From a virus, in the UHGV virus genome UHGV-1774420: a DNA stretch of 15,169 bases, one strand, 5' to 3'. Of the stretch, positions 392 through 4,699 are shown piece by piece; within the stretch, counting starts at the first letter, position 1; each line of letters begins with the position of its first letter. The translations under genes and the position numbers were made by a program. The notes under the pieces were generated by a model. It was not told the DNA's origin and ran no database searches. It worked only from the letters and a program-made list of their open reading frames with translations.

Positions 392-409
392 TTTTTTCGG
401 AGAAAGGTG

Positions 410-772
410 ATGCGTGATATTCAGATGGTTCTGGATCGTTGGGGAGCATGGGCGGCGAGTGATAGTTCAGGAGTAGATTATTCTCCTATAGCTGCTGGGT
501 TTAAAGGGCTTCTTCCCTATACAAGCAAAACACGTCAGGCTTGTTCAGATAGTGATGCATTAATTATTGAAGGTTGTCTTGCACGTCTAAAGCAAAAAAG
601 ACCTGATGAGCATTCGCTTCTTGTGGCACATTATTTATACAGAATATCCAAGCGTAAGATTGCAAAGGCGCGTGGAAAGGATGAGAAACTAATACGCATT
701 GAGATACAGATGGCTGAGGGGTTTATTGATGGATGCCTTTCAATTCTGGATGTTAAACTTGAAATGGATTAG
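410..772 (+). CDS. Q: late-gene antiterminator Q (Phage_antitermQ family, DLP12 QuuD-like)
   Basis: Translation MRDIQMVLDRWGAWAA...GFKGLL...ARLK...AEGFIDGCLSILDVKLEMD closely matches my recollection of E. coli DLP12 QuuD (MRDIQMVLERWGAWAANN...). GGAG at 399-402 lies 7 nt before ATG 410; GTG at 407 is an alternative start. AT-rich (about 33-42% GC). Position before the lysis cassette fits Q. Confidence 0.8.
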   Translation: MRDIQMVLDRWGAWAASDSSGVDYSPIAAGFKGLLPYTSKTRQACSDSDALIIEGCLARLKQKRPDEHSLLVAHYLYRISKRKIAKARGKDEKLIRIEIQMAEGFIDGCLSILDVKLEMD

Positions 773-777
773 TGAAA

Positions 778-795
778 CCCCGGCTTAAGCCGGGG
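778..795. terminator. perfect palindrome CCCCGGC-TTAA-GCCGGGG between convergent Q and the NYN gene; possible bidirectional terminator
   Basis: 7-bp GC-rich stem with a 4-nt loop. On the minus strand it is followed by TTTCACT; on the plus strand by ATGTTTCAG. The stop codon of the minus-strand gene (785-787) lies in the loop. The U-tract is weak on both strands. Confidence 0.45.
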
Positions 796-1648
796 ATGTT
801 TCAGATTGAAGTGTTTTTTTCTTGGGCTCGTTCTTAGATGATTTTGTTTTCTTTTGACGATTGAGTTTTTTCTCTTTGCGTCTGTCAATATAATCGTCCC
901 ACCAATCAGGTTTTACTGTTGGGACGATTCTGCAAATATCAGCAATTGCAACAACAATGTTGCTCGATTGCACTCCATCGACGTGCTCTGCCAGTGAGGG
1001 AGGAACTTGTTGGTTCATTGGATCGAGGATAAAATCCACACCCTTTATACGGGCATGTTTAGCGGCAGGAACGAAATCAGCATCGCCAGCAATCAGGACG
1101 ATCACATCAACTAGTTTCTCATGAGCAAGGATAGTTATATCCATACCAAGCTTAATATCGACGGCTTTTTGTTTATATTCGTAGTAGAAATCGTCGTTAG
1201 TTAACTCAGACCATTGAATTTCATTACGTAATAGTTTCTTAAGAGTATGTTCTTTTATTTGCCAGTTACCGACGTTTGAAAGAATACCCATACGAAGTGC
1301 CGTTTTACGATTCTTCCTTAGCTCCTCATGAAGCTTGTTTCGTAAAACATTCGGAGCATGTGTCTTGAAGTTTTTAGTTGATGGGGTTTTGTTGTCTCCA
1401 TCAGGCAAAGGATACTTAATCTGTTTATCAAGCGGCGGGCAGTCGTAATAGTAAATACGGTAAAGCTCAAGTGGTTCACGGTCAGCGTGAGCACCATGTG
1501 GAACCTCTACATGAAATTTAACAATTCGCCAGATTATTTTAACAAGTTGTTGGCTGTCTAACTCATGCCCAGGGAAATGTTTTCGTAGAAAGTAATCAAT
1601 CCGACGGATGAAGTAGCCGCCGTCAATCAAGACTGCTGTTTTCTTCAT
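785..1648 (-). CDS. NYN/LabA-like (PIN-fold) domain protein with an inserted region and a Lys-rich C-terminal tail; putative nuclease moron
   Basis: N-terminal KKTAVLIDGGYF and later AVDIKLGMDITILAHEKLVDVIVLIAGDADFVPAAKHARIKGVDF match the conserved acidic motifs of NYN domains (iDgeN ... D.a..D ... vlvSgDsDf) as I recall them. C-terminus RRKEKKLNRQKKTKSSKNEPKKK is strongly basic. About 37% GC against about 60% in flanking phage genes. The ORF track starts at GTG 1660; I prefer ATG 1648 (MKKTAV...), which has only a weak RBS. Confidence 0.65.
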   Translation of the reverse strand: MKKTAVLIDGGYFIRRIDYFLRKHFPGHELDSQQLVKIIWRIVKFHVEVPHGAHADREPLELYRIYYYDCPPLDKQIKYPLPDGDNKTPSTKNFKTHAPNVLRNKLHEELRKNRKTALRMGILSNVGNWQIKEHTLKKLLRNEIQWSELTNDDFYYEYKQKAVDIKLGMDITILAHEKLVDVIVLIAGDADFVPAAKHARIKGVDFILDPMNQQVPPSLAEHVDGVQSSNIVVAIADICRIVPTVKPDWWDDYIDRRKEKKLNRQKKTKSSKNEPKKKTLQSETSPA

Positions 1649-1737
1649 TGAAAAACTCACAAAAAAAGCTCAGAACCGTTGAGTAGACCCTAAATATTAT
1701 CTACGAACAGTGCTGAGCTGGTGACGCAATAATTAAC

Positions 1738-1840
1738 TATTGACATTTGCGTTGTCAACAAATTTTGCACTGTTTAAATGTAAATTTTTTCTGCTGTCAA
1801 CATATAGTGTCATCTTTGGCATGTTGACACTATATAAACG
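1738..1840. promoter_or_regulatory. repeat-rich intergenic control region; likely holds the late promoter (pR-prime analogue) and the divergent promoter of the NYN gene
   Basis: TTGACA at 1740-1745. TGTCAACA at 1753-1760 and 1795-1802, with its reverse complement TGTTGACA at 1822-1829. Inverted repeat ATATAGTGTCA (1802-1812) / TGACACTATAT (1826-1836) with a 13-bp spacer. TATATAAA at 1831-1838. No single unambiguous -35/-10 pair could be assigned by eye. Confidence 0.4.
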
Positions 1841-1901
1841 CTTACGCGGTCCGCAAAAATAATTGTATCATGTTAAGAGTGGTTACTTCGACTCCTTCCT
1901 T

Positions 1902-1927
1902 AAAACCGCAGTTGAGCGGTTTTTTTG
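1902..1927 (+). terminator. rho-independent terminator, candidate tR-prime
   Basis: Stem AACCGC (1904-1909) / GCGGTT (1916-1921), loop AGTTGA, then a T-run at 1920-1926. Lies downstream of the candidate late promoter and upstream of the first plus-strand late ORFs, as expected for a Q-dependent terminator. Confidence 0.6.
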
Positions 1928-2048
1928 TACCTGTAAACCTGGTGCAGTACAGTAAACACGCTGGTGGTCGTGAATACTGGCTTTTTATCTTGCTGGCTTT
2001 TTAGACAAGAGTTATTGGTATGTCATGTTAACCAGAAGGGAAAAAGAC

Positions 2049-2252
2049 ATGCTAAAACAGCAAGATATGACAGAAACCGCCGCCGTAGTCCTTCATTTCC
2101 TACCTGCTGACAAGTGGGTAACGCCACGCATGATGACGAGAACTACCGGAGTAAGCGAAGCCCGGTGCCAGTTAATACTGACTCAGTTAGTTCTGGCGGG
2201 TCTGGCGAAGGATAACGGCGGGTACGGGAATAAATTCAGACGCTGCCAGTAA
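2049..2252 (+). CDS. small winged-helix DNA-binding protein (FaeA-like), putative regulator
   Basis: 67 aa from ATG 2049, with AAGGGA RBS 7 nt upstream (the longer ORF from 2025 has no RBS). Segment TRTTGVSEARCQLILTQLVLAGLAKD resembles the recognition helix and wing of small FaeA-like regulators. Backbone-like GC content. Confidence 0.45.
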   Translation: MLKQQDMTETAAVVLHFLPADKWVTPRMMTRTTGVSEARCQLILTQLVLAGLAKDNGGYGNKFRRCQ

Positions 2253-2402
2253 TGGCGGTTTCCTGCTGTGAAAATGGGCGGCTGGTGGGTGTTGGTAGCA
2301 CCTGCCAGCCATTCGCTCATGCTTACTGGTCACAAGCGAACCACGGCCCACTGCTTTAGCGCAAAAGCAGAGTGAGCCTACCAGAGTTACGCTTACTGAT
2401 CC

Positions 2403-3455
2403 ATGAAAAATACTGTAAAAATAAACAGTGTTGATTTAATCAACGCTGATTGCCTGCATTTTATTCAGTCCCTGCCTGATGATTCCATTGACCTGATTGT
2501 TACCGATCCGCCGTACTTCAAGGTGAAACCCAACGGCTGGGACAATCAGTGGAAAGGGGACGAAGATTACCTTAAGTGGCTGGACCACTGTCTGGCCCAG
2601 TTCTGGCGGGTGTTAAAACCTGCCGGAAGCCTTTACCTGTTCTGTGGGCATCGCCTGGCATCTGATATTGAGATCATGATGCGTGAACGTTTCAACGTGC
2701 TTAACCATATCATCTGGGCGAAGCCGTCCGGACGTTGGAATGGGTGTAATAAAGAAAGTCTGCGTGCATATTTTCCTGCCACAGAGCGCGTTCTGTTTGC
2801 TGAACATTACCAGGGGCCATATCGCGGCAAAAGTGACGGCTATGCGGCAAAAGAAAGGGAACTCAAACAGCACATAATGGCACCGCTGATATCGTATTTC
2901 AGGGATGCTCGTGCCGAACTGGGTATAACGGCAAAACAAATTGCCGAAGCCACAGGTAAGAAAAATATGGTTTCCCACTGGTTTGGTGCCAGTCAGTGGC
3001 AGTTGCCGAATGAGGCTGACTATCGGAAGTTACAGGCACTGTTTTCCCGTATAGCGGCAGAGAAGTTTCAGGAACAACAACTGGAACAACCACACCACCA
3101 GCTGGTGGCGTCTTATGATTCACTGAATCGCAAATATTCTGAATTGCTGGATGAGTTTAAATCTCTCCGGCGCTATTTCTCCGTATCAGTCTCCGTGCCT
3201 TATACCGATGTCTGGATGCATAAACCCGTTCAGTTCTACCCGGGTAAACATCCGTGTGAGAAACCGGCGGATATGCTCAGGCAAATAATCAATGCCAGTA
3301 GTCGACCTGGTGATCTGGTTGCTGATTTTTTTATGGGATCCGGTTCCACAATAAAAGCAGCAATGGCGCTGGGGCGTCGGGCCTTAGGTGTTGAGCTTGA
3401 GTCAGAGCGGTTTAACCAGACAGTGAAAGAGATAAACGAGCTGGTGGGGAAATAA
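2403..3455 (+). CDS. orphan N6-adenine (N6/N4 family) DNA methyltransferase, beta-class motif order
   Basis: DPPY catalytic motif near the N-terminus (LIVTDPPYF). AdoMet-binding FxGxG motif near the C-terminus ([13 protein letters not shown]). Central insert carries an HTH-like segment ([19 protein letters not shown]). No restriction endonuclease partner is seen nearby. Confidence 0.9.
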
Positions 3456-3461
3456 TCTGGT

Positions 3462-3487
3462 GGCCACGTCAGGTGGCCTTTTTATTT
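3462..3487 (+). terminator. hairpin plus T-tract after the methyltransferase gene
   Basis: GGCCAC (3462-3467) / GTGGCC (3473-3478), 5-nt loop, followed by TTTTTATTT. Placed between the methyltransferase stop (3455) and the holin start. Confidence 0.5.
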
Positions 3488-3522
3488 CCATTACACAGCA
3501 CCCGCATCTGCGAGGTGGGGTT

Positions 3523-3738
3523 ATGAAATCCATGGATAAGTTAACAACGGGTGTCGCCTATGGCACCTCAGCAGGTAGCGCCGGGTACTGGTTTTTACAG
3601 TTGCTCGATAAAGTCACGCCCTCACAGTGGGCGGCAATAGGTGTGCTGGGTAGTCTGGTATTTGGCCTGCTGACGTACCTGACAAACCTTTATTTCAAGA
3701 TTAAAGAAGATAAGCGCAAGGCTGCGAGAGGTGAATAA
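3523..3738 (+). CDS. S: class II holin (pinholin), phage 21 S21-like, dual-start motif
   Basis: [71 protein letters not shown] is near-identical to my recollection of S21 ([29 protein letters not shown]...). Met1 and Met4 give the antiholin/holin dual start. GAGGTGGGG RBS upstream. Confidence 0.9.
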
Positions 3739-4235
3739 TGCCTCCATCATTACGAAAAGCAGTTGCTGCTGCTATTGGTGGCGGAGCAATTGCTATAGCA
3801 TCAGTGTTAATCACTGGCCCAAGTGGTGACGATGGCCTGGAAGGTGTCAGCTACATACCATACAAAGATATCGTTGGCGTATGGACTGTATGTCACGGAC
3901 ACACCGGAAAAGACATCATGCTCGGTAAAACGTATACCGAAGCAGAATGCAAAGCCCTCCTGAATAAAGACCTTGCCACGGTTGCCAGACAAATTAACCC
4001 GTACATCAAAGTCGATATACCGGAAACAACGCGCGGCGCTCTGTACTCGTTCGTCTACAACGTGGGTGCTGGCAATTTCAGAACATCGACGCTTCTTCGC
4101 AAAATAAACCAGGGCGATATCAAAGGCGCATGTGACCAGCTACGTCGCTGGATATACGCTGGCGGTAAGCAATGGAAAGGCCTGATGACTCGTCGTGAGA
4201 TTGAGCGTGAAGTCTGTTTGTGGGGGCAACAATGA
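3738..4235 (+). CDS. R: SAR endolysin (T4-lysozyme-type muramidase, R21-like)
   Basis: N-terminal Gly/Ala-rich signal-anchor-release segment ([20 protein letters not shown]), then a lysozyme domain (Glu-Asp-Thr catalytic region, YIPYKD...[10 protein letters not shown]). Start overlaps the holin stop. Confidence 0.92.
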
Positions 4236-4699
4236 GCAGAGTAACCGCGATTATCTCCGCTCTGGTTATCTGCATCATCGTCTGCCTGTCGTGGGCGGTC
4301 AATCATTACCGTGATAACGCCATCGCCTACAAAGAACAGCGAGATAAAAAAGTCAGTGAGCTGAAGCAGGCGACCGCCACCATTACTGACATGCAGCAGC
4401 GCCAGCGTTCTGCTGATGCACTCGATGCTAAATACACGAAGGAGTTAGCTGATGCGAAAGCTGAAAATGATGCTCTTCGGCGCAAGCTTGATAATGGTGG
4501 TCGGGTGTTCGTCAAAGGAAAATGCCCTGTGCCATCCTCAGCCGAAACCTCCAGCGCCTCCGGCATGGGCAATGATGCCACCGTCGAACTCTCTCCAGTT
4601 GCTGGACGAAACGTTCTCGGTATCCGGGACGGAATTATCCGCGACCAAACAGCACTGAGAACGCTTCAGGAATACATCAGGACGCAATGCCTTCGATGA
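4232..4699 (+). CDS. Rz: i-spanin Rz
   Basis: N-terminus [31 protein letters not shown]... matches lambda Rz as recalled. ATG 4232 overlaps the endolysin stop (ATGA). Transmembrane anchor plus coiled-coil periplasmic domain. Confidence 0.9.
4452..4658 (+). CDS. Rz1: o-spanin Rz1, embedded in the +1 frame of Rz
   Basis: Lipobox LIMVVGCSS followed by the proline-rich stretch [11 protein letters not shown]. Fully nested inside Rz in a different frame, as in lambda Rz/Rz1. Confidence 0.8.

Follow-up and report, generated by a model that had tools for sequence, protein, structure and literature searches.

A precedent for the layout of the locus reported here is AbiF_Cd/RCd22, a type III-like toxin-antitoxin (TA) system of Clostridioides difficile with the abiF RNA motif (RF03085). 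It lies in a prophage beside the lysis module and consists of a promoter, a conserved non-coding RNA, a Rho-independent terminator and the toxin gene, and the RCd22 RNA both reduces read-through and neutralises AbiF_Cd by direct binding (bioRxiv 10.1101/2025.04.15.648962). In the classical type III TA and abortive-infection (Abi) systems (ToxIN, AbiQ, CptIN, TenpIN) the RNA gene and the endoribonuclease-type gene likewise share a strand, the former directly preceding the latter with an intrinsic terminator between the two, and these systems reside on mobile, phage-related elements. A third point of comparison is provided by lambda rexAB, sieB and other exclusion morons expressed in the lysogen, to which the present cassette is comparable in its own predicted promoter and terminator, its atypical base composition and its patchy distribution. 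Here we describe a locus in the UHGV virus genome UHGV-1774420 (15,169 nucleotides, analysed in full and referred to below as the window) that resembles all three in its architecture. Between the antiterminator gene Q and the late region it carries, on the minus strand, the gene of a NYN-domain protein, and this gene is preceded by a conserved, structured leader RNA.

We hypothesize, with a probability of roughly 40%, that this NYN module is an RNA-gated nuclease built, by analogy, like a type III TA system or AbiF_Cd/RCd22. As in the type III layout, a promoter and an RNA, the transcription of which is predicted, stand directly upstream of the nuclease gene on the same strand. An initial annotation of this DNA had proposed a single-gene defence or toxin module. 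The single-gene part of that proposal has to be given up, because the conserved leader RNA with its predicted terminator always precedes the open reading frame (ORF), so that the functional unit is made up of promoter, RNA and nuclease gene. The parts of this unit are:

785-1648, minus strand: gene of the NYN-domain protein, a predicted nuclease of 287 amino acids (aa), with an invariant set of Asp residues, ~80 extra residues and a variable C-terminal tail
1649-1660, minus strand: spacer between the U-tract and the AUG, with the weak Shine-Dalgarno sequence GUGAG, from direct reading of the sequence
1661-1719, minus strand: conserved leader RNA with the shape of an intrinsic terminator, from the covariance model R1, the minimum free energy (MFE) and compensatory changes
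1729-1758, minus strand: sigma70-like promoter with a -35 box TTGACA (1758-1753), a -10 box AATTAT (1734-1729) and a spacing of 18, 10 of 12 positions matching the consensus

In the window the leader is a 53-nucleotide (nt) three-tier hairpin (1667-1719) that starts within 10 nt downstream of the -10 box and whose 3' arm runs into a U7 tract (1661-1667) that leaves 12 nt to the AUG. The hairpin folds with an MFE of -22.4 kcal/mol (z -4.4). R1, a covariance model for which 14 leaders were aligned by hand, finds it at 1658-1723 on the minus strand with 82.9 bits (E about 1e-19). The same arrangement is seen upstream of the Edwardsiella, Pseudomonas syringae, Brenneria and Halomonas homologues, with compensatory changes in all three helices. 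At every locus of clade A, to which the window belongs, R1 gives exactly one strong match (20 genome loci, 63 viral loci and the phages ev099 and Brookers), located on the strand of the gene and ending 5-32 nt upstream of the start codon (in most cases about 10-20 nt), and it gives none on the other cargos that occupy the same slot beside Q. A sigma70-like promoter (at least 8 of 12 matches) whose -10 box ends 8-11 nt before the hairpin precedes all 16 clade-A leaders examined, compared with 7.6% of control windows. Moreover, at least five T are found in the next 10 nt after the hairpin in 16/16 clade-A leaders and in 55 of 59 others.

The structure is borne out by the pattern of substitutions. 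In the hand-built seed alignment 11 of the 19 pairs change on both sides, and among 26 distinct clade-A sequences compensatory changes are found in 14 of the 19, a count which comes from a model-fitted alignment and is therefore biased towards the structure. With 89.7% of cells paired, as opposed to 26-41% in slid registers, the observed values are reached by none of 500 shuffles. G-U pairs are frequent and fit the sense strand only, which assigns the structure to the sense transcript. The leaders of E. coli and Edwardsiella share 97% identity, compared with 80% for the coding sequence and 49% for codon position 3.

Altogether, the leader or a related hairpin is present upstream of NYN homologues at more than 150 loci in several phyla. 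In the distant homologues the hairpin is a distinct, related one, GCCCUUGG-CAGUAMG...stem-loop...CCGAMC-CCAAGGGC, followed by a U-run; its outer helices are predicted by RNAalifold and compensatory changes occur in 10 of 10 pairs. A MAFFT alignment in which the leader sub-types were mixed lost the structure signal (RNAalifold retained only 4 pairs), and each of the two forms was therefore given a model of its own (R1 and R2). In 71 loci R2 matches once, immediately 5' of the gene, and it has 0 off-target matches in 655 kb. It fails to detect the leader of the window, and R1 barely detects the leaders of the distant homologues (clade B). The distant leaders (L038-L096, L161-L174) also share a conserved internal loop, CAGUAMG / CCGAMC (AGUA/GAA), which is lost in the clade of the window. 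The resemblance of this AGUA/GAA loop to the bulged-G motif of loop E / sarcin-ricin raises the idea that the RNA might mimic a natural target.

Could the hairpin be incidental, an ordinary terminator or a DNA recombination site next to an orphan or decaying NYN homologue without a current role? A hairpin with a U-run does resemble a generic terminator, a truncated paralogue is all that is left in ~200 E. coli genomes, and the gene is in places disrupted by IS1. Nevertheless, we consider this very improbable: a promoter stands immediately before the hairpin at every clade-A locus, the G-U pairs single out one strand, the RNA is specific to NYN genes and covaries across the loci of several phyla, the catalytic residues are all invariant, and the ORF is intact in 24/27 carriers. 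A DNA-level role for the hairpin (integron attC-like or other) was rejected on account of the promoter, the U-tract and the strand-specific G-U pairs.

The protein matches the Pfam family NYN (PF01936) with 39 bits against a gathering score of 24.2 (E 1.4e-9, residues 109-212), and structure comparison shows that its PIN-like alpha/beta fold superposes on solved NYN domains. Six aspartates (D9, D69, D164, D170, D189 and D191) do not vary among 46 homologues. Because this holds down to 41% identity with the query, an active metal-dependent nuclease is predicted. Two of the acidic motifs are LIDGGYF (residues 7-13) and GDADF (residues 188-192), and the middle one is QKAVDIKLGMD (D164-x5-D170). 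The profile hidden Markov model (HMM), the fold and the acidic residues all place the protein in the NYN domain family, as a predicted nuclease. It is not an equivalog of TIGR00288 (NCBIfam), since it scores 30 bits against a threshold of 178, and in PHROGs it is assigned to phrog_5783, a family without assigned function. In comparison to the solved NYN nucleases (PF01936; LabA-like/VPA0982, 2qip; MARF1 NYN, 5yaa) it has ~80 extra residues and a C-terminal helix, and it carries neither an OST-HTH/LOTUS nor another partner domain. No relative turned up among PDB sequences, whether the protein or the family profile served as query. Of the last 37 residues 13 are Lys or Arg; this basic tail is not conserved, the Pseudomonas homologues having an acidic one.

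The minus-strand ORF (785-1660) would encode 291 aa if translation began at a GTG and 287 aa if it began at the ATG at 1648. The true start is the ATG, because PGAP annotates this form (WP_000750482.1, ‘NYN domain-containing protein’), because the homologues all open with MKK(T/A/R)A, and because the alternative GTG falls within the U-tract of the leader RNA. The initial annotation had described much of this correctly: a minus-strand ORF of 287-291 aa, convergent with Q and joined to it by a palindrome (the TAA stop, 787-785, lies in the loop of 778-795); a promoter-like site of its own on the far side (TTGACA-18-AATTAT); a weak ribosome-binding site (GUGAG, 7 nt 5' of the AUG); an extra region, which amounts to ~80 residues more than the minimal NYN domain; and a NYN/PIN fold, on which the HMM match above cut-off and the structure comparison agree. 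Other statements held in part. Of the motifs, LIDGGYF and GDADF are as described, whereas the proposed D-x-x-x-D is in fact D164-x5-D170. The Lys-rich tail is there, but it is lineage-specific rather than a conserved feature. The insert is indeed AT-rich, and the lowest-GC 876-bp stretch of the entire window lies inside the gene, but the contrast is 40.9% (ORF) against 52.5% (window minus 785-2024; 51.4% for the whole window) and not 37% against 60%. The Q gene has a GC content of only 42%.

The comparison with AbiF_Cd/RCd22 shows the same order of elements, predicted for the NYN module from its sequence. The AbiF_Cd fold is Abi_2/HEPN-like and unrelated to NYN, and RCd22 has two abiF motifs and a separate terminator, whereas the NYN leader is one hairpin that would double as terminator. 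There is no sequence or fold relation between rexAB or sieB and the NYN protein. At E values up to 1, NYN was the sole Pfam family matched, and ToxN, AbiQ, CptN, TenpN and AbiF/Abi_2 were not; at the same cut-off Rfam release 15 gave no match on the leader in the window or in eight homologous loci, the Rfam matches away from the leader being to Cobalamin, C4/isrK and similar families. PADLOC-DB v2.0.0 gave no significant full-length match for the NYN protein, its matches being weak (E about 5e-4), in agreement with the earlier statement that the gene belongs to no named defence system. The NYN module is outside the known type III TA families, PADLOC systems and Rfam families, and its likeness to them is architectural only. 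The gene has already been annotated generically; neither Rfam nor the literature searched yielded a description of the leader RNA or of the gene's status as a hotspot moron. In that literature no account of this particular gene was found, and no report of a dedicated upstream RNA for NYN proteins generally.

How might such a module work? The unit would comprise four minus-strand parts: a constitutive promoter of the sigma70 type, a ~60-nt structured RNA acting as intrinsic terminator, the gene of a metal-dependent NYN endonuclease and a terminal hairpin. In the lysogen most transcripts would end at the leader and yield a small hairpin RNA, and rare read-through combined with the weak ribosome-binding site would give little nuclease. 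The hairpin RNA would be the cognate ligand of the nuclease and keep it inactive as pseudo-substrate or RNA antitoxin, which we propose because the layout matches that of type III TA and AbiF_Cd/RCd22. An infecting phage that halts host transcription or upsets the RNA:protein balance would free the nuclease, which would then cut RNA and stop the phage from growing (abortive infection or superinfection exclusion). Of these steps, we infer termination, RNA-protein binding, toxicity, the RNA substrate and the anti-phage effect; a role in defence, exclusion or as a toxin is suggested by the position of the gene and the fold of its product.

The same leader could also be purely cis-acting, as an attenuator and 5' stabiliser, possibly with autoregulation through binding or cutting of the leader by the nuclease itself, in the way of RNase III on the rnc leader or Regnase-1 on its own stem-loop. 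NYN would then be a non-toxic, structure-specific RNase on phage or host RNAs, and no TA behaviour would be expected. The position of the hairpin at the extreme 5' end of the mRNA, so close to the AUG, is in keeping with this, as are the lack of repeats, the conservation of loop and internal-loop sequences, as in a protein-binding site, and the many distant homologues at non-mobile chromosomal sites, for which one could plausibly assume a plain regulated RNase. However, the U-tract is conserved though a 5' stabiliser needs none, and the conservation of the leader beyond the synonymous sites of the protein suggests more than a generic hairpin. We regard a purely cis-acting leader, the main rival reading, as rather unlikely; it and the RNA-gated nuclease are inseparable by sequence alone.

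Several observations count against the RNA-gated nuclease, besides the bias in the 14/19 pair count. Classical type III antitoxins are tandem repeats processed by the toxin, whereas the NYN leader is a single hairpin: Tandem Repeats Finder found no tandem repeats over 1600-2050, and there is one model match per locus. ToxN, AbiQ, CptN, TenpN and AbiF are unrelated to the NYN protein. The leader was not called by a simple terminator scan, because its loop and length fall outside the limits of the scan, and in a few distant homologues the U-runs are degenerate. The marginal PADLOC matches, to HEC-09 (E 4.6e-4, 47 residues) and to the NYN model PDLC01154 (E 5.1e-4, 48 residues), cover the catalytic core only. 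Distant clade-B members (40-46% identity) often lie in ordinary chromosomal surroundings (TetR/DoxX, lpxC, efflux OEP), and because many clade-B loci are chromosomal the wider NYN family is not restricted to phages or defence islands. On the supporting side, the gene is disrupted in 3 of its 27 E. coli carriers, including two independent IS1 insertions at different sites (L179, E. coli F5505-C1; L180, E. coli 2017.15.02CC), of which one deletes the N-terminal catalytic part and the other only the C-terminal tail. These insertions fit a costly gene, but they may be neutral, given the preference of IS1 for AT-rich DNA.

Relatives of the protein are encoded on 412 IMG/VR contigs and in at least 505 genome stretches from many phyla. 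In P. syringae and Halomonas the gene of the relative is found at one end of the prophage and converges with the integrase gene. A relative with 54-60% identity is located between cI and N, the position of rexAB in lambda, in a Brenneria prophage, phage ev099 and the P22-like Proteus phage Brookers. The paralogues of ev099 (L181:3427-4358) and Brookers (L182) are 59-60% identical, and their leader RNAs score 79 and 72.5 bits with R1. According to tblastn the ev099-type paralogue is also present in phage 2B8 and in 48 Stx2a-converting phages, where the genomic context was not read. It is whole in 74 E. coli genomes, and ~200 E. coli genomes, including O157:H7 strains, retain only the leader and the first ~120 codons. 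In a Ramlibacter metagenome-assembled genome (L081:2255-3912) NYN and leader lie directly upstream of lpxC and overlap its start. Matches to the C4 antisense RNA, c4-a1b1 and isrK (P1/P7-type immunity RNAs) are found near NYN in Pseudomonas yamanorum and Paraburkholderia adhaesiva, at distances of ~0.1-0.4 kb (L062:3635-3845) and ~2.5 kb (L023:6509-6708), and because of these matches the two loci are taken as prophage regions.

It is possible, although we would sooner bet against it than for it, that NYN and leader together form a ribonucleoprotein conflict module which is widespread yet not described in the sources searched, and in which a single hairpin serves as terminator, attenuator and antitoxin. 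Such a module would span Proteobacteria, Acidobacteria, Bacteroidota and Firmicutes as well as temperate phages, among them Stx2a phages with the module in the rex position. If the RNA-gated nuclease is real, it would be a new and very compact (~1 kb) RNA-protein immune or addiction module, and type III-like TA and abortive-infection systems would gain a new toxin fold and a repeat-less RNA. It would employ a nuclease fold with which eukaryotes, too, fight viruses, in parallel to KHNYN, N4BP1 and Regnase-1. It would explain how prophages can safely carry a lone nuclease gene, and it would give a function to cargo at three kinds of hotspot (rex-type, Q-late and int-adjacent) in lambdoid phages, including the Stx2a-converting phages of enterohaemorrhagic E. 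coli. The leader would constitute a new structured RNA family with covariation in more than 150 loci. Even if the RNA were merely regulatory, this would be a clean case of a conserved attenuator linked to one protein family across phyla.

The surroundings of the module in the window, which bear on its mobility, are the following:

407-772, plus strand: antiterminator Q gene, 121 aa (PF06530, E 9e-52), left border of the cassette
773-1844, no strand: variable cassette holding the whole NYN module and swapped for other cargo in related phages, from blastn breakpoints
778-795, no strand: palindromic hairpin CCCCGGC-TTAA-GCCGGGG at the joint 3' ends of Q and NYN
1802-1835, no strand: inverted repeat with perfect 11-nt arms, ATATAGTGTCA / TGACACTATAT, located 5' of the NYN promoter and with repeated TGTCAAC motifs
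1845-1925, plus strand: right border block conserved with other small-Q phages and ending in a strong intrinsic terminator (1903-1925), from alignment with the phages cdtI and 569R4

The borders were obtained by comparison with related phages. Phage cdtI, which has the same Q type, is homologous to the window over 1-772 and 1845-4300, with the break exactly at the Q stop codon; homology with phage 569R4 restarts at 1831, and with phages that have a different, larger Q (SfV, Ayreon, mEp460) at 1903-1913, at the strong terminator. An Edwardsiella prophage with a Q of the family PF03589 and other lysis genes carries an 86%-identical NYN at the same relative position, and the DNA it has in common with the window is confined to 849-1809, that is, ORF, leader and promoter. 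These alignments support an autonomous, horizontally mobile cargo cassette, and the breakpoints at 772 and 1845 together with the alternative cargos are in line with the horizontally acquired cargo between Q and late region that had been proposed initially. No direct repeats marking an insertion mechanism were found flanking the cassette.

The slot is used for different cargos. A backbone extending from Q to the methyltransferase gene is found in ~643 complete E. coli genomes, and the NYN gene in 27 of the 5426 E. coli genomes, or 27 of the ~643 with the backbone. At the same place cdtI and 569R4 carry unrelated two-gene minus-strand cassettes, and further E. coli genomes have cargos of 339, 148, 205 and 140+289 aa, of which the 289-aa protein (L178:1483-2352) matches the PADLOC candidate PDC-S42 (E 9e-33). 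The NYN cassette qualifies as a lambdoid moron: it is accessory, absent from close relatives and atypical in GC, with promoter and terminator predicted. Directly 3' of the small Q, at least seven unrelated cassettes, mostly on the minus strand, are seen in the window and the loci L002, L016 and L175-L178; cdtI orf54 is a DUF6731 protein, and the remaining cargos, apart from the PDC-S42 match, belong to no family.

This distribution also bears on whether the nuclease might serve the life cycle of the phage itself, by tuning the lysis-lysogeny decision through the processing or degradation of phage or host transcripts, by host takeover, or through prophage addiction (post-segregational killing). 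Many temperate phages do carry the gene at regulatory junctions (cI-N, Q-late), and in the window NYN is antisense to pR read-through via Q, so that its expression may be tied to the state of the phage. Yet most close relatives live without the gene, its slot accepts interchangeable cargos, and it occupies three unrelated positions in different phages. This patchy, interchangeable, multi-site distribution argues for an accessory gene rather than a core regulator, and a phage-serving role is in our view improbable.

The convergent Q and NYN genes end at the 778-795 palindrome, which folds with -17.3 and -17.2 kcal/mol on the two strands (z -3.8 and -4.7), none of 200 shuffles folding as well. 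The U-runs are weak on either strand, and the hairpin is possibly a bidirectional terminator. cdtI and 569R4 have their own, differing hairpins at the equivalent position. On the other side of the module, the NYN -35 box is embedded in the palindrome TTGACA-N7-TGTCAA (1740-1758), and the Edwardsiella locus has a pair, TATATAGT..ACTATATA, similar to the inverted repeat at 1802-1835; both the palindrome and the repeat may be operator sites.

No tRNA genes were found in the window. Judged from alignment and folding, the block at 1845-1925 is probably the late promoter with an early terminator (pR'-tR'-like), although a consensus search gave no good -35/-10 pair within 1824-1872. The terminator at 1903-1925 folds with -10.1 kcal/mol and is followed by U7; together with a second terminator-like hairpin at 1960-1990 (plus strand) it forms a tandem that precedes a small conserved ORF (2025-2252, plus strand; 75 aa here, 67 aa according to PGAP; no family). 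Between the late-promoter region and the holin lies a DNA methyltransferase gene (2403-3455, plus strand), an unusual occupant of the early late operon which is common to SfV, cdtI, Ayreon and mEp460.

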